A stretch of DNA of 64,000 nucleotides from Mycobacterium sp. GTDB taxonomy: Bacteria; Actinomycetota; Actinomycetes; Mycobacteriales; Mycobacteriaceae. Numbering within the stretch: the first letter of the stretch is position 1; each line of letters begins with the position of its first letter. This document shows, one piece after another, positions 3,208 to 59,017 of this stretch. The notes beneath the pieces were generated by a model. That model worked only from the letters and a program-made list of their open reading frames with translations, searched no databases and had not been told where the DNA came from. The translations under genes and the position numbers were made by a program. Location: contig NZ_DATJPU010000216.1 of the NCBI RefSeq assembly GCF_035506235.1, positions 1,974 through 65,973 on the forward strand, given 5' to 3'.

Positions 3208-3251
3208 ACGCATACCGTCGCCCATCGGCGTATGCGCGACATAGGAGCAAT

Positions 3252-3268
3252 CTGAGGTTTGGCTGAGA
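3252..3268 (-). promoter_or_regulatory. MprA box upstream of sigE
   Basis: Minus strand TCTCAG-ccaaa-CCTCAG matches the MprA direct repeat TCTCAG-N5-TCTCAG. Confidence 0.75.
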
Positions 3269-3409
3269 AACCAGATCGTTACCTGCGTTGAACTGGGCCA
3301 ATGCCCGGGGGAGTGAGTTGCGTCGCTCCGCGGGATCCGGGCGTGTCGGCCCGGTTCTATTCAGGCGCGCCTGCCCGGCCTGGCGGCAAATTGGAATACG
3401 CTGCGGGTC

Positions 3410-4078
3410 ATGGACGGCACCGACGCAGCAGCCCCCGGCCAGACGGCTCCCAGTCGAGCCGAGTCACTCTGCGCGCACGCCGAGGGGTCGATCTCTGAGG
3501 ACGCGCTGCTGGCCGCGGCCCGCGAACGCGCCGTGGAGATCGGCGCCGGCGCCGTGACACCGGCGGTCGGTGCGCTGTTGAGCCTGCTGGCCAAGCTCAG
3601 CGGCGGCAAGGCCGTCGCCGAGGTGGGTACCGGCGCGGGGGTCAGCGGGCTCTGGCTGTTGTCGGGCATGGGCGACGACGGCGTGTTGACCACGATCGAC
3701 AACGAGCCCGAGTACCTGCGGCTCGCCAAGCAGTCCTTCTCCGACGCCGGCATCGGACCCTCGCGCACCCGGCTGATCAGCGGGCGCGCCCAAGAGGTGC
3801 TCACCCGGCTCGCCGACGAGTCCTACGACCTGGTGTTCATCGACGCCGACCCGATCGACCAGCCCGACTACGTCGTCGAGGGCGTGCGGCTGCTGCGATC
3901 CGGGGGCGTCATCGTGGTGCACCGCGCGGCGCTGGGGGGCCGGGCGGGTGATCCCGCCGCGGGCGATGCGGAGGTGACCGCGGTGCGCGAGGCGGCCCGG
4001 CTCATCGCCGAGGACGAGCGGCTCAGCCCGGCGCTGGTGCCGCTGGGCGACGGGCTGCTGGCCGCAGTCCGGGACTAG
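3410..4078 (+). CDS. SAM-dependent O-methyltransferase (Rv1220c-like)
   Basis: EVGTGAG motif I, DLVFIDAD; TACGCT -10 box 7 nt before ATG (leaderless). Confidence 0.9.
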
Positions 4079-48113: not shown

Positions 48114-49076
48114 TCACGCCCGGTGCGCCAGCGCCCGCAGGAAGAACTTCAGGTTGGCCGGTCGCTCGGCCAACCGCCGCACGAAGTACCCGTACCACTG
48201 GGTGCCGAACGGCACGTACACCCGCACGCGGTCGCCGGAGCCGGCGAGCCGGCGCTGCTCCCCCTCGCGGATGCCATAAAGCATCTGATATTCGAAATCG
48301 TCGACGCCGCGCCCCGATTCGCGGGCCATACCGGGAACCGCCTCGATCACCGCCGGATCGTGCGAGGCCACCATCGGATACCCGTTGCCCGCCATCAACA
48401 CTGCAAGGCATCGCAGGTACGAGTCGGTGACCTCGGTGTCGTCCCGGTAGGCCACGGACGCGGGTTCGTCGTAGGCGCCCTTGCACAACCGGATCCGCGC
48501 GCCGGACGCGGCGAATTCCTCGCAATCCCCGCGCGTGCGGCGCAGGTAGGCCTGGAGAACCGTTCCAAGCCATGGGAAGTCGGCCCGCAGGTCACGCACG
48601 ATCGACAGCGTCGAATCGGTGGTGGTGTGGTCCTCGGCGTCCACCGTCACCCACACACCGGCCCGACGCGCCGCGTCGCAGATCGCAAAGGCGTTCTCGC
48701 GGGCGATCTTCTCGCCGTCGCGGTCCAGCGCCCGCCCCAGCGCGGACAGCTTCAGCGACACTTCCAGCGGCCGAACCCCGTCGCCCTCGTCACGGAACTG
48801 GGCCAGCCTGCCGATCAGATCGACGTATACCCGCACGGCCGCGTCGGCGTCATCGGAGTCGGTGACGTCCTCGCCCAGGTAGTCAATGCTGACGAGGCGG
48901 CCCGAATCACGAAGCGCAGCAACGCTGCCCAGCGCGCAATCGATCGTCTCGCCAGGTACGAACCGCCCGACCACCGTGCGCGTGACCGGCATCCGCTCGG
49001 CCGTGCGGCGCAATCCCTCCCACCGGCCGGCCGCCAGGATCGCCGGGCGCACGGTGTGGGCGAACAATCCGGCCAT
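48114..49076 (-). CDS. pruB: Proline dehydrogenase
   Basis: RFVPGE, VTVDAE, RLCKGAY, VASHD, YQMLYG, VYVPFG; start ATG 49076. Confidence 0.95.
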   Translation of the reverse strand: MAGLFAHTVRPAILAAGRWEGLRRTAERMPVTRTVVGRFVPGETIDCALGSVAALRDSGRLVSIDYLGEDVTDSDDADAAVRVYVDLIGRLAQFRDEGDGVRPLEVSLKLSALGRALDRDGEKIARENAFAICDAARRAGVWVTVDAEDHTTTDSTLSIVRDLRADFPWLGTVLQAYLRRTRGDCEEFAASGARIRLCKGAYDEPASVAYRDDTEVTDSYLRCLAVLMAGNGYPMVASHDPAVIEAVPGMARESGRGVDDFEYQMLYGIREGEQRRLAGSGDRVRVYVPFGTQWYGYFVRRLAERPANLKFFLRALAHRA

Positions 49077-50707
49077 CAGCCGGCCGCCATGTGCGGGTAG
49101 GTGTGGTCGGTGGCCGGAACGAACGTCTCCTTGATCGTGCGGGCCGACGTCCAGCGCAGCAGATTCAGCGCCGAACCGGCCTTGTCGTTGGTGCCGGAAC
49201 CGCGCGAGCCGCCGAACGGCTGACGACCGACCACCGCGCCGGTCGGCTTGTCGTTGACGTAGAAATTCCCTGCGGCGAACCGCAGCCGGTCCTGGGCGGT
49301 CAGCACGGCCGCTCGGTCGTCGGCGACGACGGCGCCGGTCAGGGCGTAGCGTGACCCGGTGTCGATGACATCCAGGACTTGTTCGTACTGGTCGTCGGGG
49401 TAGACGTGCGCCGACAGGACCGGGCCGAAATATTCCGTCGCCAAGGACTCGTCGGTCGGATCGTCGGACAGCAGCACAGTGGGCCGCACGAAATAGCCGA
49501 CGCTGTCGTCGTATTCGCCGCCGACCGCGATCGTGACGCCGGGCGCGCCCTTCGCCCGCTCGATGGCGTCGACGTTCTTGAGGAAGGCCCGCCTGTCGAT
49601 CAGCGCGCCGCCGAAGTTGGTGAGGTCGGTGATGTCGCCGTAGCGCAGCGCGGCGGTCTCGCCCAGGAAGGTGTCGCCCATGCGCTGCCACACCGAGTGC
49701 GCGATGAACACCCGTGACGCGGCGGAGCACTTCTGGCCCTGGTAGTCGAAGGCCCCGCGAATCAGCGCCGTGCACAACACCTCCGGCCGCGCCGAGGCGT
49801 GCGCGACGACGAAGTCCTTGCCGCCGGTCTCGCCGACCAGGCGCGGGTAGCTGAGGTAGCGGCCGATATTGGCGCCCACCCGCTGCCACAGGTGCTGGAA
49901 GGTGGCGGTCGACCCGGTGAAGTGGATGCCGGCCAGCCGGGGATCATCCAGGGCCACATCGGAAACCGCGTAGCCGTCGCCGGTGAGCAGGTTGATCACG
50001 CCGGGCGGCAGGCCCGCCGCCTCGAGCAGTTGCATCGTCAGATATGCCGACAGGGTTTGGGTGATCGACGGCTTCCACACCACGGTGTTGCCCATCAGCG
50101 CGGGCGCGGTCGGCAGGTTGCCGGCGATCGAGGTGAAGTTGAACGGCGTGATCGCGTAGACGAAGCCGTCCAGCGGGCGGTAGTCGCTGCGGTTCCACTC
50201 GCCGGGTCCACTGATCGGCTGCTGCGCCAGGATCTGACGGGCGAACGCCACGTTGAACCGCCAGAAGTCGACCTGCTCGCACGGCGAGTCGATCTCGGCC
50301 TGATACGCGGACTTTGATTGCCCGAGCATCGTTGCGGCCGCGATCTTTTCGCGCCACGGCCCGGCCAGCAGGTCGGCGGCCCGCAGGAACACCGCGGCGC
50401 GCTCGTCGAAAGGCATTGCCGCCCAGTCTTTCTTCGCGGCCATCGCCGCGTCGATCGCCGCCGTCGCGTCGGCGTGCGTGGCGTTGGTAAGGGTGCCCAG
50501 CTTCGCGGCATGCCGGTGCGGCTGGACGACGTCGACCCGATCACCCGCACCCATCCGGTGCTCGCCGCCGATGACGTGCGGGAGGTCGACCGCGTGGTCG
50601 GCCAGGGCGCTCAACTCGGCGAGCAGGCGAGCGCGTTCGGGGGATTGCGGCGCATAGTCGTGGACCGGCTCGTTAGCCGGGACCGGTACCTGGGTGATCG
50701 CGTCCAT
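49076..50707 (-). CDS. pruA: 1-pyrroline-5-carboxylate dehydrogenase
   Basis: PFNFTSI, GETGGKD, YQGQKCSA, GSGTNDK; start ATG 50707. Confidence 0.95.
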   Translation of the reverse strand: MDAITQVPVPANEPVHDYAPQSPERARLLAELSALADHAVDLPHVIGGEHRMGAGDRVDVVQPHRHAAKLGTLTNATHADATAAIDAAMAAKKDWAAMPFDERAAVFLRAADLLAGPWREKIAAATMLGQSKSAYQAEIDSPCEQVDFWRFNVAFARQILAQQPISGPGEWNRSDYRPLDGFVYAITPFNFTSIAGNLPTAPALMGNTVVWKPSITQTLSAYLTMQLLEAAGLPPGVINLLTGDGYAVSDVALDDPRLAGIHFTGSTATFQHLWQRVGANIGRYLSYPRLVGETGGKDFVVAHASARPEVLCTALIRGAFDYQGQKCSAASRVFIAHSVWQRMGDTFLGETAALRYGDITDLTNFGGALIDRRAFLKNVDAIERAKGAPGVTIAVGGEYDDSVGYFVRPTVLLSDDPTDESLATEYFGPVLSAHVYPDDQYEQVLDVIDTGSRYALTGAVVADDRAAVLTAQDRLRFAAGNFYVNDKPTGAVVGRQPFGGSRGSGTNDKAGSALNLLRWTSARTIKETFVPATDHTYPHMAAG

Positions 50708-50791
50708 GCTGCCGATGATCCCCGGCGCGGACCCTGATCTTGTTGGCCGATTGGACAAGGTTGGGGGTTCTGGCTAGTAGAATCGGACAAC

Positions 50792-52369
50792 ATGCGAGTG
50801 GCGGGTATCGGTCTGGGTCAGATGTTGCTCGCGCTGGACGCAACGCTGGTCAGCCTGGTCGACGCCCCGCGCGGCCTGGACCTTCCGGTGGCGTCGGCGG
50901 CGCTGATCGATTCCGACGACGTGCGGCTGGGCCTTGCCGCGCCGGCGGGTTTGGCCGACGTCTTCTTCCTGCTGGGCGTGACCGAGGACGAAGCGCTGCG
51001 ATGGCTCGACGGACGGACGTGCGCACCGGCGGCGATCTTCGTCAAGGGGCCGTCGGATGCCCTGGTGGCGGCGGCGGTCGCGGCCGGGTCGGCGGTGGTG
51101 GCGGTGGAGCCGAGGGCCCGTTGGGAGCGGCTCTATCAGTTGGTCAATCACGTGCTGGAACATCACCGGGACCGCGGCGACCCGGTCGATGACTCGGGCA
51201 CCGACCTGTTCGGCCTGGCGCAGTCGCTGGCCGACCGCATCCACGGCATGGTCAGCATCGAAAACGCCCAGTCGCACGTGCTCGCCTATTCGGCTTCCAA
51301 CGACGAGGCCGACGAGTTGCGCCGCCTTTCCATCCTGGGGCGCGCCGGGCCGCCCGAGCATCTGGAGTGGATCGGCCAGTGGGGCATCTTCGACGCGCTG
51401 CGCTCCAGCGGCGAGGTGGTGCGTGTCGCCGAGCGCCCGGAATTGGGTCTGCGCCCGCGGCTGGCCATCGGCATCCGCCAGCCCCCGGCCGGTGCGCGCC
51501 GACCGCCGGTGTTCGCCGGCGCCATTTGGGTGCAGCAAGGCTCGCAGACCCTGGCCGACGACGCCGAGGACATGCTGCGGGGCGCGGCCGTCCTGGCCGC
51601 GCGAATCATGGTGCGGCTGGCCGCCCGGCCGTCCACGCATGCGCGGCGCATGCAGCAACTTCTCGGGCTCACGGACGAACCCGCTGACGCGGCTGCCGTC
51701 GCCCACGAACTCGGCCTGCCCGCCGACGGCGCCGCCGCGCTGATCGGTTGGGACACCATCGGGACTGCGCATCCGCGCCTCGCCGACGTCCTGGCGTTGA
51801 GCGCCAGCGCTTTTCGCCGCGACGCCCAGGTCGCGTCGCATGCATCCCGGATCTACGTGCTGCTGCCACAGACGCAGACGCGGTCGGTCAGCTCATGGGC
51901 GCGCGGCACGATCGGCTCCCTGCGCGCCGAACTCGGCGTCGAGCTGCGGGCCGCCATCGCCGCGCCGGTCGCCGGTCTGGCGGAAGTCGCGGCGGCGCGC
52001 TCGGAGGTCGACCGCGTCCTTGACAGCGCTGAGCGACACCCGGTTTTAGGCCAGGTGACCACGCTGGCCGAAGCCCGCACCACCGTCCTGCTCGACGAGA
52101 TCGTCACCCTGGTCGGCGCGGACCAGCGGCTGGTCGATCCGCGGATACGCGACCTGCGCGCCCAAGATCCGGTGCTGGTCGAGACGCTGCGGGCCTACCT
52201 GGACAGCTTCGGCGACATCGGCGCCGCCGCCCGGGTGCTGCAGGTGCATCCCAACACCGTTCGGTACCGGGTGCGACGGATCGAGAAGCTGTTGTCGACG
52301 TCGCTGTCGGATCCCGAGGTGCGGCTGCTGTTTTCGCTGGGATTGCGGGTGACCGAGCGCTCGGCTTGA
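50792..52369 (+). CDS. pruC: PucR-family regulator of proline utilisation
   Basis: C-terminal HTH LQVHPNTVRYRVRR; divergent from pruAB; TAGAAT -10 box just upstream. Confidence 0.92.
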   Translation: MRVAGIGLGQMLLALDATLVSLVDAPRGLDLPVASAALIDSDDVRLGLAAPAGLADVFFLLGVTEDEALRWLDGRTCAPAAIFVKGPSDALVAAAVAAGSAVVAVEPRARWERLYQLVNHVLEHHRDRGDPVDDSGTDLFGLAQSLADRIHGMVSIENAQSHVLAYSASNDEADELRRLSILGRAGPPEHLEWIGQWGIFDALRSSGEVVRVAERPELGLRPRLAIGIRQPPAGARRPPVFAGAIWVQQGSQTLADDAEDMLRGAAVLAARIMVRLAARPSTHARRMQQLLGLTDEPADAAAVAHELGLPADGAAALIGWDTIGTAHPRLADVLALSASAFRRDAQVASHASRIYVLLPQTQTRSVSSWARGTIGSLRAELGVELRAAIAAPVAGLAEVAAARSEVDRVLDSAERHPVLGQVTTLAEARTTVLLDEIVTLVGADQRLVDPRIRDLRAQDPVLVETLRAYLDSFGDIGAAARVLQVHPNTVRYRVRRIEKLLSTSLSDPEVRLLFSLGLRVTERSA

Positions 52370-52384: not shown

Positions 52385-52894
52385 TCATCGAATCGGGCGG
52401 CCACCACCGACTTCCGCTGCAGCGCTCTGGATCGCCGCGACCCGATCGCGATCGATACCCCAGGGCTCGTCAACGCCGACGCGTTGGTCGAGATCCCATA
52501 GGACACAGTGCTCGCCCGGTGTTGCGACGAGCGACCATGCGAGAACCGTTCTGCGCAAATGCTCATCGGCTGAATCGAACGCGCCACGAACGTCGTCCGG
52601 TGCGCCGCCCTCCGGGTAGTGATGCAGAAACTCCCCATACGCCTGCCTGCAGAACTTCGCATACTGGACCGTGCACAGGATCAGGCCGTGCCACGCCTCA
52701 TCGACTGCACGCGAAGGCATCCCGATCACCCGATGGTCCCGCAGCGCGGGCGCGCAGCAGCGCAGCCATTGCCGCAACCCGCTGTCGACAAGCGGTCTCG
52801 GCTGCCACGGAGAGGTTTTGAACACCGCCGCGGGAAGCTCCAGCCGCGCGACCGCGGAGTTCGCCCGATCGAACCGACCGCCGCGCCAACGCAT
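52385..52894 (-). CDS. Stand-alone glycine-rich-domain protein (GRDP/DUF1399)-like protein, 169 aa
   Basis: MPSRAVDEAWHGLILCTVQYAKFCRQAYGEFLHHYP matches the PSxxVDxxWHxxILxTxxYxxFC...FxHHxP signature; ATG 10 nt after upstream stop. The longer ORF-track start only reads through the neighbour's Gly tail. Confidence 0.75.
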   Translation of the reverse strand: MRWRGGRFDRANSAVARLELPAAVFKTSPWQPRPLVDSGLRQWLRCCAPALRDHRVIGMPSRAVDEAWHGLILCTVQYAKFCRQAYGEFLHHYPEGGAPDDVRGAFDSADEHLRRTVLAWSLVATPGEHCVLWDLDQRVGVDEPWGIDRDRVAAIQSAAAEVGGGRPIR

Positions 52895-52904
52895 TTTCGG
52901 TATG

Positions 52905-53744
52905 TCAATGCCCCCCGCCACCACAGCCGCCTCCGCCGCAGCCGGATCCTCCGCCGCAACCGCCGTGACCGCCGCCGCAGCCGCTGTGCCCGCCGCTGCA
53001 CCCGGAACCGCCGCCCCCGTCGCCGCCCCCGCCCGTCGCCCAATAGCGATGACGGCGTCTGTTGCGGGTTTGCAGATGTCGAACCACATAGGCGACAGCC
53101 ATCACCACGGGTATGACGAAAAACGCAATGCCCATCCAGTCCGGCGCGGGGCCGTCCAGTCGAACGAAGTGGCCCAGAAAACGCAGCCCGGCTCCGCCGC
53201 CGGCGAGGAGGACGAATAAGAGTAAATACCAAACCCAAAAGCTACTGAATACAGAGCTGACGACGTCAGAAATCCTGCGGCCCGAGCCCTGGGGACCCGC
53301 GGCATGCGTCGTGGGAACCCGGCCGATGGGCAGCTGCGGAGCCGCGCCCGTTCTGAGTTGTTGCTCAACGAGATCGAGAAACGCATCGACCTCGTCTTCG
53401 TTGTACCCGCGTCTTCCGATCGGTGGCCTCGCGAATGACACGTCGTGCACGTGCTCTGACATCAGAGCGTGTCCCGTGGGGTCTACCAGCGCCGACTCGA
53501 TGAGGTCCAGAAACGCGTCGACCTCGTCTTGGTTGTAGCCGGACTTTCCGATGGGTGGCTTGGAGAAAGCCACGCTGCGAACCTGTTCTGCACTAAGGCA
53601 ATCGCCCGTCGGTGACGCAAATCTGTTGACCTTCCATTTTTGTCGCCCGGCCGCGCCGTGGGTGGCGGTCAGGCGCTTTTGCTCGGCCAGCTGGCTTTCC
53701 AGCTCGGCGATGCGTTTCTCGGGGTCGTCCTGGTTGATCTCCAT
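52905..53744 (-). CDS. Tandem DivIVA-domain, two-TM protein with Gly/Cys/His-rich C-terminal tail
   Basis: AGGAAA RBS, ATG 53744; coiled coil [13 protein letters not shown]; two [21 protein letters not shown] repeats; two TM helices; tail [35 protein letters not shown]. Confidence 0.82.
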
Positions 53745-54064
53745 GGCGTTTCCTGTCGCTGCGGTCAGGCGAGAGATTACTGCGGGGCATTTGCGAAATT
53801 CTTGCGTCACTCTCGCGTCAACCCGGTTGGTACAAGCGCCGGCCAGACGCCAATTCCCCGATCCGAGCGGAGCAAGTACACGTCACTTAGGGGGCCTGCC
53901 CTTGGGTAATTGCCATCTCCGTGCCAGGTCACCGCGCCGAAAAGCAAGAAGCGGGCGCGGCGACGCCGACACCCAGTGCCGAGGTGGTGTTCATGTGGCG
54001 CTCCACTTGTCTGACCTCGGTGACAATCATGACGGGCTCCGGCCGACGGCGGAAGGGCGAAAGC

Positions 54065-54212: not shown

Positions 54213-54283
54213 GGCACTTATCCACAGTTGGGACTTGGTCCACAGACTCCGTTGTCGTGGCGTGCCTGCGTCGGGGGCCGCAT

Positions 54284-54304
54284 TAGAATCGAAAGCATGT
54301 TCGA
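54284..54304 (+). promoter_or_regulatory. -10 box plus LexA (SOS) box over the start of the 13E12/HNH gene
   Basis: TAGAAT (54284)-N7-ATG; TCGAAA-GCAT-GTTCGA (54289-54304), one mismatch to TCGAAC-N4-GTTCGA. Confidence 0.75.
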
Positions 54305-55826
54305 ACTGCCGGATGCCGAGGCGCTGCGCGCGGCCGACGACGCGGCGGTGGTGGCCGCGATCACGGAGGGCGCCCGCGCCGAGGCCGCCGCCGCCGCGCG
54401 GCGGCTGGCGGCCATCGCCGAGTTGGTGCGTCGCCGCGCCGACGGGCCGGTCGACCGCGCGTACTGGTCGTGCGACAACTGGGACGCGATGGCCGCCGAA
54501 GTCGCTGCGGCACAGGGCGTCAGCCACGCCATGGCCTCGGGGCAGATGTATCTCGCGGTGGCCCTGCGCGACCGCCTGCCCAAGGTGGCGGCCTTGTTCG
54601 CCGAGGGCACGATCAGCGCGCGGCTGGTCTCGGGGATCGTGTGGCACACGGACCTGATCAAGGACTCCGAGGCGCTGCGGTTGGTCGACGAGACGCTGGC
54701 CCGGGACGCCAGGCACTTCGGGCCGCTGTCATTGGGCAAGACCGCCCAGGCCATCGACGCGGTCGTCGACCGCCACGACCCCGCGGCCCTGCGCCGCAGC
54801 CGCGCCGGCGCGCGCGGGCGCCACGTGACGATCAGCCCCGACGAGCACGACTCGGGCACCGCGGCCCTATGGGGTTCGTTGTACGCGACGGACGCCGCCG
54901 CCCTCGATCGCCGATTGACCGAGATGGCCCAGCAGCTATGCGACGGCGACCCGCGAACGCTCGATCAGCGCCGCGCCGACGCGCTGGGGGCCTTGGCCGC
55001 CGGCGGCGAACACCTCGCGTGTGGCTGCGGCAAGGCCGAGTGCCGGGCCGGCAGCGACTCTCGAGCCGCCGCCGTGGTGGTCCACGTCGTCACCGACGCA
55101 GCTGCCCTCGATGCCCAGCCCGACCCGCACAACTCGGGCGAACGCAAGTCGCGGCCCATCACACCGGACATGACCCTGGACGAGGCGCTGGCCCCCGACC
55201 CCGAACCCGACATCCCGGCGGTGCGGTTGCCCGCGGCCCACCTCACCGGCGGCGGCACCATTCCCGCCTCGATGGTGGCCGAGCTGATCCGCAACGGCGC
55301 CAAAGTCCAACCACTGCACCACCCCGCCGATTCGCCACCCGAGCCGGGTTATCGCCCCTCGGCCCGGCTCGAGCGATTCATCCGCTGCCGCGACATGACG
55401 TGCCGATTTCCCGGCTGTGATCGACCCGCCGAGTTCGCCGACATCGACCACACCATCCCGTACCCGATCGGCCCGACCCACGCCTCGAACCTCAAATGTC
55501 TATGCCGAAAACACCACCTGCTAAAGACTTTCTGGCCGGCATGGCGCGACGAGCAACTGCCGGATGGCACCATCGTGTGGACCTCACCGAGCGGGCACAA
55601 GTACATCACCCGTCCGGGCAGTCGGCTGCTGTTTCCGGCGCTGTGCCTACCCACCGGCGAACTGCTCAGTGTTCCAAAGGATTACGGCGCACCTTCCGGC
55701 GATCGCGGCCTGATGATGCCCACGAGGCGACTAACCCGGCAACAAGACCGCGCCCATCGCATCGACGCTGAACGCGCGCTCAACGCCGACCGCGTCGCCG
55801 AACGCAATCAACCGCCGCCATTTTGA
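54297..55826 (+). mobile_element. 13E12-repeat family DUF222 + HNH endonuclease protein
   Basis: [68 protein letters not shown]. Confidence 0.9.
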
Positions 55827-56374
55827 GACAGTGACGCCACTTCGCCGTCGCGATTTCCTGCCGCAACAGCTTCCGGTGCCTCGAAGCCCGCGCGCTACGA
55901 GCCGCTGGTCACGGTGTGCCTGAACACATGAAAGGAAACCCCTCCGGTGGCGGCGGATCAGTTCCCTCCCAGACGCCGGGCGAAACGTTCCCGTCCCCCA
56001 GACAACGCCGTACCGCTTGCGAGATGCTCGCGTTTGCTCGACCCGACCCGGGCTGCAAAGCCGTGAAGCCAACTCGGGCCGGATGGCCATCAGCAACGCC
56101 GTTGTCGGTGTTTTGAAAGCCCACAAAGTCGCGGCATACGTTTATACATCGTCTGAAAACAAGGCCGGATCTGGCACGCCGGAATGATTTGCGCCGAAGG
56201 CACTGCCTACGAGTACGACAAGTGCGGAAAAAACCCTTCAACAGGCATGATTTTGCGAAGGCCTGTCCGATTAACGCGGTACAAACATTTTGCTCCGAAG
56301 ATGATAATTTTACTCGAACCATGCGCGGACTCAGTAGCCTCTGCGAAAACACCTGGTCATGGAGGTTTGGCGTC

Positions 56375-59017
56375 GTGCAAACGGAGAGCGCGTCGGAGTG
56401 GCCGATAGTAGCCCGCGACGACGAGCTGCGCCGAGCCTTGGCGGCGCTCGCGGATGACGCGGATTTTTGTGGCGTCGCGTTGGTTGGCGACAGCGGGGTG
56501 GGTAAATCGACGCTGGCTCGTTCGCTTGCCGACACACTCGAGTCGGGCGGGGCGACGGTGCGGTATGTGCTGGGCACCCAAACCGGCTCCACGGTGCCGT
56601 TGGGCGCGTTCTATCGATCGTTGACCGTGGAGGCGCCGCAGGAACCGGCCGCCATGCTCGCGGCCGCGATAGGAACCCTGGAGCGAGAGGAGAACCTCGT
56701 CGTCGTCGTCGACGACGCGCAGCTGCTCGATCCGTTGTCGTCGACGCTGGTGCAACAACTCGCGGCCGGCGGCGGTGCGCGATTGATCGTGACGATCCGG
56801 TCCGGCGAGCCGGTACCCGACGCAGTAACCACGCTTTTGAAGGAGCGGTTGTTGCTGGGTCTCCATATCGATGCGTTCACGCCGCAGCAGACCGAGGCGC
56901 TGGCCCGCGCAGTACTCGGCGGCGTCGTCGACACCGGGCTGATCACCGCATTGCACGGCCGGGCGGCGGGCAACCCGCTGCTACTGCGCAGCCTGCTGGG
57001 CGCGGGTCGCGAAAGTGGCGTGCTGGTGTGCACGCGCGCGGGCTGGCAACTCCACGGCGCGCTGCGTGCCGACCGCGAACTCTACGCTCTGCTCGAGTTT
57101 CGACTGCAATCCTTCGCACCGGAGGAGTTGGAGGCCGTAGAAATCCTGGCGGCCGCAGAGGTGCTCGACTGGGAGATCCTGCGTGAGCTCTGCGATCCCG
57201 ACGTGGTGAGCCGCCTAGAGCGACGGGGACTAATCCAGGTGGTCGCCGACGGCTTCCACACCGTGGCGCGGTTGGGTCATCCCGTCTTGGGTGAGGTGGC
57301 GATGCAACGAGCCGGAGTGGTGCGGACGCGGCAGCTCACTACCCAACTGGCACAACAACTTCAGAAGCAGATGCAGACGCAGGAGGAGCGGTCGGGGTCG
57401 CCCGACGTGCGCACCCGGATACGGTTGGCGCAACTCATGACGCGAAGCGACATGCCGCCGGACCTCGACGTGATCGTCGGCGCCGCGGCGAGCGCGGTGA
57501 CCATGTCGGACATCGCGTGCGGAGAGGACTTGGCCCGATTCGCGTTCGAGCGCGGCGGTGGCCTGCCGGCCGCGCTCGTGCTTGCCGAGGCGATCGGCTG
57601 GCAGGGAAGAGGCGCCGAGGTCGAGGCGATGCTCAATGACGTCGATCCCGACGGTGCCGATGAGCGGCTGGTCGTCCAGTGGGGTTGTCTGCGTGCCGCG
57701 AACCTCTTCTTCAGCTGCAGGCAGGTGGAGCCGGCAGGGCTGGCACTCGCTGAAGTGCGGGCGCGCGTCGGTTCTGACGCACTGCTCCCGCTCGTGAGGG
57801 CCATGGAAGCGGCGTTCGCATGCTTTTCCGGTGACGTCCGAACGGCACTCGACCTCGGGTTGGAAGTCTGCAAATCCAGTGTGCCACCGGCGATCAGGAC
57901 GTGGGCTGCCACCTGGACGTGTTGGGCGTTGGCCCTCACCGGCCAGTTCCACGAAGTCCGGCGCGTAGCGGATGCCGGGCGGGCAGCCGTGCTCGATCAA
58001 TCCGGGCCGTGCCGGTTTGCCATGGGCTTGGCCGAGGTCGTGGCGTTGACGTCCGCCGGCGATGACCTGGCGGCCGAGCGGGTGCGCGAGCGCTACGCTT
58101 CCACGACGAGGGTGTGGCCCGCTGCAGACGCCTTCGTGCACGCCATGCTCGGATCGGTGCAGCTTGCCCGGGGCGGGTTGACGCTCGCGTGTTCTGCCTT
58201 TCAGGATTCGATATCGACCATGGCGCGTGGTTTTCCGCCGGGCTGGTTGATGCTGATATCAGCCTGGTCCGCGCAGGCCCAAGGCGCTCGGGGAGACAGC
58301 GCGGCCGCCGCCGCCGCGCTGTGCAGGGCCGACGACGCTTACGGACCGCACGTCGCAGTGTTCCTGCCCGAACTCGAGCTGGCCCGGGCCTGGGAGCGAG
58401 CCTCCGCCGGCCAGACGACGACCGCGCAAGCACACGCGGTCCGCGCCGCGCAGATCGCGCGCCAACGCGGGATGTGGGCCGTCGAGATGCGCGCCCTGCA
58501 CACCGCCGTGCGGTTCGATGACCGCTCCCAAGCCGGGCGGCTGGCGCAGCTGGCGACGACACTCAACACCCCGCTGGCAGACGCGATCGCCCAGCACGCC
58601 CGCGGCCTGGCCGACCACGACGGCGATCTTCTGGACGCCGCCGCCGACCGATTCGCTGACATGGGCGCGATGGCGCTCGCCGCCGACGCGGCGGCCCACG
58701 CCGCCCGCGAACACGCCAGCACCCGCCAGCGTGGCAAGGAGATATCGTCGTCGACCCACGCGCACAGGTTGGCTAAGCAGGGCGGAATACGAACGCCGGC
58801 GGTCGATGCAGCGGCCTCGCCGTTGCCCATCACGGCTCGTGAACGCGAGATCGCGAACTTGGTCACGGCCGGCTTGTCCAACCGGCAGATCGCCCAAAGG
58901 CTGGTCGTCTCGGTGCGGACGGTGGAGGGACACGTTTATCGCATCTTCGGCAAGCTCGGCATCGATGACCGCGAACAGCTGGTCCAGCTGATACGTCTCG
59001 CCTGCCACGAGAATTAA
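56375..59017 (+). CDS. Large ATP-binding LuxR-family (LAL/STAND) regulator
   Basis: GGAGG RBS before GTG 56375; GDSGVGKST, VVVDDAQLLD, GNPL, C-terminal ITAREREIANLVTAGLSNRQIA..SVRTVEGH. Confidence 0.92.
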   Translation: MQTESASEWPIVARDDELRRALAALADDADFCGVALVGDSGVGKSTLARSLADTLESGGATVRYVLGTQTGSTVPLGAFYRSLTVEAPQEPAAMLAAAIGTLEREENLVVVVDDAQLLDPLSSTLVQQLAAGGGARLIVTIRSGEPVPDAVTTLLKERLLLGLHIDAFTPQQTEALARAVLGGVVDTGLITALHGRAAGNPLLLRSLLGAGRESGVLVCTRAGWQLHGALRADRELYALLEFRLQSFAPEELEAVEILAAAEVLDWEILRELCDPDVVSRLERRGLIQVVADGFHTVARLGHPVLGEVAMQRAGVVRTRQLTTQLAQQLQKQMQTQEERSGSPDVRTRIRLAQLMTRSDMPPDLDVIVGAAASAVTMSDIACGEDLARFAFERGGGLPAALVLAEAIGWQGRGAEVEAMLNDVDPDGADERLVVQWGCLRAANLFFSCRQVEPAGLALAEVRARVGSDALLPLVRAMEAAFACFSGDVRTALDLGLEVCKSSVPPAIRTWAATWTCWALALTGQFHEVRRVADAGRAAVLDQSGPCRFAMGLAEVVALTSAGDDLAAERVRERYASTTRVWPAADAFVHAMLGSVQLARGGLTLACSAFQDSISTMARGFPPGWLMLISAWSAQAQGARGDSAAAAAALCRADDAYGPHVAVFLPELELARAWERASAGQTTTAQAHAVRAAQIARQRGMWAVEMRALHTAVRFDDRSQAGRLAQLATTLNTPLADAIAQHARGLADHDGDLLDAAADRFADMGAMALAADAAAHAAREHASTRQRGKEISSSTHAHRLAKQGGIRTPAVDAAASPLPITAREREIANLVTAGLSNRQIAQRLVVSVRTVEGHVYRIFGKLGIDDREQLVQLIRLACHEN

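Follow-up and report, generated by a model that had tools for sequence, protein, structure and literature searches.

A tail-less helical domain and a cysteine- and glycine-rich tail encoded by neighbouring genes in a mycobacterium

Two adjacent genes and their products

We analysed a window of 64,000 nucleotides from Mycobacterium sp. (RefSeq assembly GCF_035506235.1, contig NZ_DATJPU010000216.1, positions 1,974 to 65,973 of the forward strand; all coordinates below count from the first letter of this window) and focused on two adjacent genes on its minus strand. Gene 1 encodes a membrane protein with two DivIVA domains that ends in a tail rich in cysteine, glycine and histidine (hereafter the Cys/Gly tail), and gene 2 encodes a small helical domain that lacks such a tail. 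Hundreds of other bacterial species have domain and tail fused in one protein. Comparison of sequences thus makes it almost certain that the two work together. The features of the pair are these:

52905..53744, minus strand: gene 1, 279 residues, with its stop codon at 52905-52907 (from the open reading frame, its translation and homologues of the same start and architecture)
53490..53597, minus strand: DivIVA domain 1, residues 72-107 of the 301-residue translation of the open reading frame (best TIGR03544 stretch)
53352..53453, minus strand: DivIVA domain 2, residues 120-153 of the same translation (NF050102 Wag31 stretch 120-153, Pfam DivIVA stretch 133-152)
53172..53264, minus strand: transmembrane segment 1, residues 161-191 of the 279-residue protein (Kyte-Doolittle 19-residue window of at least 1.6)
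53082..53138, minus strand: transmembrane segment 2, residues 203-221 of the 279-residue protein (Kyte-Doolittle window 2.36)
53031..53081, minus strand: juxtamembrane polybasic stretch and W-x-[AST]-G motif (from the sequence)
52908..53030, minus strand: Cys/Gly/His tail (from the translation; conserved across carriers)
52895..52904, minus strand: spacer of 10 nucleotides from the gene 1 stop to the gene 2 ATG (from the sequence)
52385..52894, minus strand: gene 2, 169 residues, a tail-less all-helical domain whose relatives are assigned to PF27765
52613..52720, minus strand: signature core MPSxxVDxxWH...C...HHxP, residues 59-94 of gene 2 (from three alignments)

The open reading frame that contains gene 1 spans 52905..53810 on the minus strand and translates to 301 residues; we placed the start of gene 1 at the ATG at 53744 since homologues begin there and not at the 5' end of the frame. 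The N-terminus is a short conserved helix-like stretch. A first-pass annotation, made from the letters of the window without database searches, had reported two DivIVA motifs, and we found that TIGR03544 matches gene 1 in two stretches (81.1 bits against a cut-off of 22, E=3.2e-23) and that Pfam DivIVA (PF05103) passes its cut-off (30.5 against 28 bits), in agreement with that report. Gene 1 falls far below the Wag31 equivalog NF050102 (113.3 against 260 bits, with only the short N-terminal domain matched, twice) and below TIGR03543 (35.7 against 154 bits). It shares with DivIVA/Wag31 proteins the DivIVA lipid-binding domain of ~34 residues, of which it has two copies, but it is without their long coiled-coil body and has two transmembrane helices and the Cys/Gly tail instead.

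The two transmembrane helices, the basic stretch (RNRRRHR, in a flank of net charge +6) and a poly-Gly tail with five Cys and three His had likewise been read from the letters. All are present: the hydrophobic segments cover residues 161-191 and 203-221, and translation gives five Cys with 6, 6, 5 and 4 residues between successive ones. Two close relatives of gene 1, P0292 and P0297, have the same N-terminal half and no tail. A search with TIGR04222, which the first-pass annotation had proposed, gave no match on gene 1 at E<=1 (cut-off 43 bits), so that gene 1 is without this domain.

Gene 2 begins 10 nucleotides after the gene 1 stop and carries PSxxVDxxWH..C..HHxP, both as first described. 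Its sequence contains MPSRAVDEAWHGLILCTVQYAKFCRQAYGEFLHHYP, and within the signature core S61, D65, W68, H69, Y78, C82, G87, H91, H92 and P94 are near-invariant; together with D136 (gene 2 numbering), these core residues are near-invariant both in tail-less proteins and in forms that carry domain and tail in cis. The protein ends in ...AAEVGGGRPIR with no Cys/Gly tail, which is also missing from all 30 aligned mycobacterial homologues, and it has neither a hydrophobic N-terminus nor a membrane helix.

Gene 2 has 1336 close homologues, named 'hypothetical protein' in all sources. It gave no match to our copies of Pfam-A and NCBIfam, among which the PF27765 model was not included; the precomputed assignment for its own protein cluster and for all 120 homologues listed is PF27765.1. 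PF07173 (GRDP-like/DUF1399; gathering cut-off 22.7 bits) did not match gene 2 at E<=1 and had 0 matches in a six-frame search of the whole genome. Searching 1.84 billion representatives with a profile of the 30 homologues, we found 4079 proteins at E<=0.001, each a cluster representative at 50% identity. The distant matches have 200-300 residues, with the domain followed by a C-terminal Cys/Gly tail of the GGGCGGGGCGG type and often preceded by an N-terminal membrane helix. One of them, P0239 (E=5e-15 with the gene 2 profile), passes PF07173 with 26.8 against 22.7 bits and aligns with the gene 2 family in hhalign at 95% probability (E 3.7e-8, 125 columns). Hence, by profile comparison gene 2 is a remote relative of the GRDP/DUF1399 proteins and not a member of PF07173 as defined; the GRDP/DUF1399-like label given at first stands as remote homology through P0239 and fails as direct membership.

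Proteins of PF27765 with domain and tail bear the same signature as gene 2, MPSxxVDxxWHxFIL...Y..FC...G..LHHxP, but gene 2 differs from these cis proteins in having neither tail nor membrane helix, the tail being on the neighbouring gene. PF07173 shares with the gene 2 family the core motif VDxxWHxHIL...C...LHHxP, although only the C-terminal ~50 positions of its model overlap the common motif, and its domain, like that of the gene 2 family, is repeatedly associated with a glycine-rich segment. No function has been published for PF27765, nor a biochemical one for PF07173, with MctA of microcin Mcc1229 as a possible exception. The plant proteins GRDP1 and GRDP2 are soluble and stress- and auxin-related, and the papers on them give phenotypes only (PMC4299439).

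Domain and tail in cis and in trans

Relatives of gene 2 mostly carry the domain in cis with a Cys/Gly tail, as the first-pass annotation had stated. We found at least 590 species loci with this cis form by comparing an alignment of cis forms with one genome per species; represented are beta- and gammaproteobacteria, Planctomycetes, Gaiellaceae, other actinomycetes and cyanobacteria. In hhalign the tail-less family of mycobacteria aligns with proteobacterial cis forms at 99.7% probability (E 4.6e-26). Nearly all of 80 cis loci that we inspected have Cys/Gly ends and a common layout, in which an N-terminal membrane helix is followed by a basic stretch, FIxxYxFP, the domain, a linker and a tail ending ...GCGGGCGGGD or similar. 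By clustering of neighbours, no other conserved gene was found at the 80 cis loci; a sigma-54 activator lies near 12 of them. Hence, since no other gene is conserved beside the cis form, domain plus tail is a self-contained unit.

The gammaproteobacterial cis forms have, in addition, a conserved YCASHIGC(S/G)SGC motif just past the domain, modelled with a predicted local distance difference test score (pLDDT) of ~80, and their C-terminal end ...GCGGGD is nearly fixed; both were seen in columns ~260-363 of the cis alignment.

Relatives of gene 2 were found at 434 species loci, and the analyses of the trans form were made on the best 80 of these 434. All of the 80 that are named below phylum are mycobacterial, save one metagenome-assembled genome (MAG) labelled Sericytochromatia; the remaining loci are labelled only as uncultured Actinomycetota or Actinomycetes. 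A strict rule counted as a tail the end of an open reading frame, in any of six frames, whose final 20 residues include no fewer than 3 Cys and 9 Gly, provided that the frame has at least 60 residues. By this rule 53 of the 80 loci hold 62 tails, none of them farther than 1.5 kb from the gene 2 homologue (272 kb searched). The outer flanks of the same loci (364 kb) gave 0 tails by this rule, and looser rules raised the number of loci with an adjacent tail to ~63. Relative to the gene 2 homologue the tail gene is upstream, either immediately so and on the same strand or, in more of the loci, in divergent orientation; eight loci hold two or three tail genes each. Hence, the pairing that was proposed from the window recurs, and the neighbourhood analysis asked for at the outset came out in its favour.

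In the genome from which the window comes (6.09 Mb) there is a single gene 2 homologue and a single open reading frame with a true Cys/Gly tail, and the two are adjacent. Since this single domain gene and this single tail adjoin, the pairing of gene 1 and gene 2 is far beyond chance. A strict DNA pattern for the tail matched 14-15 of 25 genomes with gene 2, compared with 1-2 of 20 genomes of the same genus without it; a second, looser pattern was too noisy and was not used. One match of the DNA pattern, at G174:C17:38763-38857, was rejected: it consists of five tandem 14-nucleotide units (TGCGGCGGCGGGTG) that run out of frame with a period of 14, so it is a repeat and not a tail.

Domain gene and tail carrier need not be linked. 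Genome G273 has both a domain gene and a canonical small carrier, unlinked; the carrier (L166:1035-1400, G273:C76), on another contig than the gene 2 homologue, has a transmembrane segment, RRRRR, RIWAAGAAG and CGGGG repeats.

Gene 2 is patchily distributed, being present in 26 of 301 sampled genomes of the GTDB family and in 4 of 34 genera, always in single copy. All tail-less proteins of mycobacteria group together in a maximum-likelihood tree (support 99/98), and their clade branches from within the tailed forms. Since the tail-less clade is monophyletic within tailed forms, the tree fits a single split or tail loss in mycobacteria. This tree and the tails on neighbouring genes (53 of 80 loci by the strict rule, ~63 by looser ones) uphold the early proposal that domain and tail are here split in trans. 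Taken over cis and trans forms, domain and tail are, by these comparisons, an evolutionarily coupled pair.

Most carriers of the tail are proteins of 80-150 residues with one membrane helix, a polybasic stretch, the W-x-[AST]-G motif and the tail. The type with DivIVA domains and two transmembrane helices, to which gene 1 belongs, is seen at L001, L002 and L040. The first-pass annotation had cast the carrier as a pole-localised scaffold; as a general theme this does not hold, because DivIVA carriers are a minority and most carriers are the small one-helix proteins. Two carriers have a GPP34 domain (PF05719, E=3e-23; L012:~3240-3963 and L074:~3390-3993). These form a third, unexpected type, with no membrane helix and a (CGG)n tail end, encoded directly upstream of the gene 2 homologue.

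The motif 'basic...Wx[AST]G' recurs in 49 of 68 tail carriers from other loci. Over DivIVA-type and small one-helix carriers the tail has a consensus that opens H-S-G-C-G-G-G-[HS]-[SG] and closes [HN], and its codons vary freely, with GGC, GGT, GGA and GGG for Gly, TGC and TGT for Cys and, depending on the carrier, TCC or AGC for Ser. Since the amino acids are kept across carriers despite many synonymous changes, the tail is evidently under purifying selection rather than drifting, and this conservation argues against alternative frames. A literature search on Gly/Cys-rich bacterial tails returned only gecko, LIM and tick proteins.

By neighbour clustering, no third conserved partner was found at the 80 trans loci. 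In ~18 of the 80 mycobacterial loci, a two-component system of an OmpR-family response regulator with a HAMP histidine kinase, which by eye resemble PrrA and PrrB, is encoded 1.2-1.8 kb upstream of the gene 2 homologue (e.g. L077:2373-3164 and L029:1200-2555). We set this system aside as a partner, as it looks like local synteny.

Membrane proteins of the TIGR04222 family resemble gene 1 in having a low-complexity Cys/Gly(/Ser) C-terminal tail. They are putative substrates of MNIO enzymes, and their tails are proposed to be periplasmic (PMC12452194), whereas the gene 1 tail is predicted to be cytoplasmic. A whole-genome search found no TIGR04222 match in the source genome. That TIGR04222 proteins carry similar tails, as first stated, is seen in P0397, which also fuses a GRDP-like domain. 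This protein, from the Gloeothece verrucosa PCC 7822 plasmid NC_014534.1 (L163, 329616-330935), has an N-terminal GRDP-like domain, a TIGR04222 membrane domain (84.2 bits) and a GGCGCGC end. The gene after it (328961-329626), which overlaps it, encodes a thiopurine-S-methyltransferase/TehB-like methyltransferase. This neighbour, which has no counterpart in the mycobacterial loci, hints at thiol-directed chemistry.

Topology and predicted structure

The flank that follows transmembrane segment 2 of gene 1 has a net charge of +6, against 0 and +1 elsewhere. Hence, by hydropathy and the positive-inside rule, the gene 1 tail is predicted to be cytoplasmic, as had been supposed; with two helices and a cytoplasmic tail, the DivIVA domains would be cytoplasmic too. 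A membrane-like segment was found in 63 of 68 carriers, and the tail-side flank is the more positive one in 51 of these 63. In the cis forms a basic stretch follows the N-terminal helix. Since the basic flanks of most carriers and of the cis forms are on the tail side and gene 2, which is likewise predicted to be cytoplasmic, lacks a hydrophobic N-terminus, domain and tail are predicted to meet on the cytoplasmic face.

AlphaFold2 modelled gene 2 from a 65-sequence alignment as all-helical, with a mean pLDDT of 93.4 and a predicted template modelling score of 0.88. Foldseek gave no match for this model in the PDB (best E 1.5, template modelling score at most 0.23), and a profile search of PDB sequences returned only Gly-Ser linkers. 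The cis form of Methylobacter marinus folds equally well to residue ~190, its tail (197-224) is disordered (pLDDT 43-51), and this model gave no PDB match either. By helix positions, D65 and H69 of gene 2 would be one helical turn apart, C82 on the next helix, and H91 and H92 in the following loop.

Interpretation and genomic context

The explanation that we favour, with moderate confidence, is that genes 1 and 2 specify, in two parts, a functional unit for which most bacteria have a single protein, and that in this unit a His/Asp/Cys centre binds or acts on the thiol-rich tail. In its usual form the unit would be a membrane-anchored helical domain (PF27765) that faces the cytoplasm and has a disordered Cys/Gly tail at its C-terminal end. 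Loss of this tail in one lineage of mycobacteria would have left the domain as a soluble protein, gene 2, and the tail would now reside on separate membrane proteins encoded next door: in the window the DivIVA-domain two-helix protein of gene 1, in other species a small one-helix or GPP34-domain protein. The near-invariant S61, D65, H69, C82, H91, H92 and D136 may form a metal or catalytic centre; what it binds, or acts on chemically, would be the flexible, thiol-rich tail, held like a swinging arm at the membrane's inner face. Candidate chemistries are metal transfer or sensing, thiol redox and covalent modification of Cys.

Several points weigh against this explanation. The clustering of the seven residues in three dimensions is inferred from helix positions. 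No metal-homeostasis or redox genes recur near the 80 trans and 80 cis loci. The AlphaFold2 model of the cis form docks the tail nowhere on the domain, and it is unusual for an enzyme of multiple turnover to be built as one copy of a domain joined to its own tail. Finally, ~17-27 of the 80 trans loci have no adjacent tail by the rules used.

A bolder proposal, which we put forward tentatively and consider doubtful as it stands, is that the PF27765/GRDP-like domain represents a so far unrecognised kind of metal-dependent enzyme, whose fold is missing from the PDB and which modifies Cys/Gly tails post-translationally or shuttles metal or redox equivalents through them; in mycobacteria it would be a stand-alone enzyme that serves several membrane scaffolds (of the DivIVA, GPP34 and small one-helix types) in trans. 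If true, there would be a system for modifying thiol-rich tails at the protein level on the inner face of the membrane.

The tail could alternatively be a passive metal buffer, a membrane-tethered, metallothionein-like sponge for Cu, Zn or Cd, with gene 2 only a metallochaperone or sensor that loads or unloads it. Five Cys and three His in a flexible cytoplasmic tail and a domain whose invariant residues are rich in His, Asp and Cys would suit this role, and Cys-derived copper chelators exist in bufferins (PMC12452194). However, the 160 loci have no recurrent metal genes, be they regulators for copper, zinc or arsenic, P-type ATPases or others, and many tails have no His and only 2-3 Cys. The cysteines of metallothioneins are arranged in CxC/CxxC clusters, and the spacing of 4-6 Gly between tail cysteines is unlike this. 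We therefore consider a passive buffer unlikely.

Ribosomally synthesized and post-translationally modified peptides (RiPPs) and microcins offer another model, in which the tail would serve as a precursor segment: the domain would recruit it or modify it, for example to Cys-derived heterocycles, and it would then be cleaved off and released or exported. Gly/Cys-rich C-termini do resemble known modified peptides, and TIGR04222 proteins with similar tails are proposed MNIO substrates (PMC12452194). MctA of Mcc1229, a hypothetical protein that is required for microcin activity, also has a cysteine-rich C-terminal region, encoded beside an ABC (ATP-binding cassette) transporter (PMC8853679). The Mcc1229 cluster has immunity genes as well as genes for an ABC transporter and a cupin protein; none of these is present at the locus of genes 1 and 2. 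More generally, no peptidase, exporter or maturase genes recur near the 80 trans and 80 cis loci, and no ABC exporter, YcaO, radical-SAM or MNIO gene among them. The MNIO family (PF05114) had 0 matches in the source genome, in a search that detected the Caulobacter positive control. Moreover, the tail is predicted to be anchored on the cytoplasmic side of integral membrane proteins, and the proteins that carry it are of full size and have their own domains (DivIVA, GPP34). A precursor role is hence quite improbable, and the RiPP-like modification and metal buffering put forward in the first-pass annotation are speculative.

Gene 2 might instead be a non-catalytic adaptor that docks on Cys/Gly tails and is thereby recruited to DivIVA, GPP34 or small transmembrane scaffolds, its conserved polar residues being structural. 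One domain gene may indeed face several carriers, given the eight loci with two or three tail genes and the unlinked carriers elsewhere, and the carriers are membrane-organising modules (DivIVA; GPP34, PF05719). Two findings argue otherwise: the seven polar residues (S, D, H, C, H, H, D) are near-invariant across phyla in a domain of ~130 residues, which is more typical of an active or metal site, and the cis-form model shows no confident docking of the tail. We give a purely structural role little chance.

It is hardly credible that there is no functional link, with the tail as drifting low-complexity sequence from GC-rich repeats in accidental adjacency or frame, or that genes 1 and 2 in reality yield one frameshifted fusion protein. 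In favour of such readings, the gene 2 frame is open across the whole tail-coding region (open reading frame 52385..53089, minus strand) and the MAG protein P0276 (467 residues) reads DivIVA, transmembrane, Ala-rich and gene 2 parts in succession. However, the tail residues are conserved in the Cys/Gly frame through synonymous changes and across carriers; 62 tails lie near gene 2 homologues, whereas the outer flanks hold 0 and the whole genome has 1 per 6 Mb; and carriers occur on either strand relative to gene 2, so a fusion is not general. P0276 was also rejected as a Rosetta-stone fusion. A different frame of its locus (L006) encodes an intact Cys/Gly tail, in keeping with a single-base indel in the MAG, and the protein is probably an assembly artefact from such an indel in a G-run.

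The components of the unit of domain and tail that we favour are already catalogued, as PF27765 and PF07173 in Pfam and, for tail-bearing membrane proteins, as TIGR04222 in NCBIfam. New here is the stand-alone, tail-less domain paired in trans with diverse membrane carriers, in the source genome a DivIVA-domain protein. The domain family is very large and extends over many bacterial phyla; plants have related proteins (GRDP1/2), and no structure of the family has been solved. The split in mycobacteria offers the unit as two natural components, 'enzyme or binder' and 'tail', which can be separated for expression, mutation and mixing, and it makes the long-open function of GRDP/DUF1399-type domains directly testable. 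It also flags small Cys/Gly-tailed membrane proteins in environmental mycobacteria that are unannotated or called 'hypothetical', and shows that membrane modules of the DivIVA and GPP34 types can bear such a tail.

The pair is flanked in the window by the following genes:

49076-50758: aldehyde dehydrogenase-family gene
50792-52369: PucR-type regulator
54228-55826, plus strand: DUF222 protein (PF02720, E=3e-62) with a putative HNH-like region at its C-terminal end, adjoining the pair
56189-59017: large LuxR-type regulator

The pair may lie in a variable or acquired segment beside proline-utilisation genes. The GC content falls to 0.61-0.64 at 53000-54000 and to 0.58 at 56000-56500, compared with ~0.69 elsewhere.

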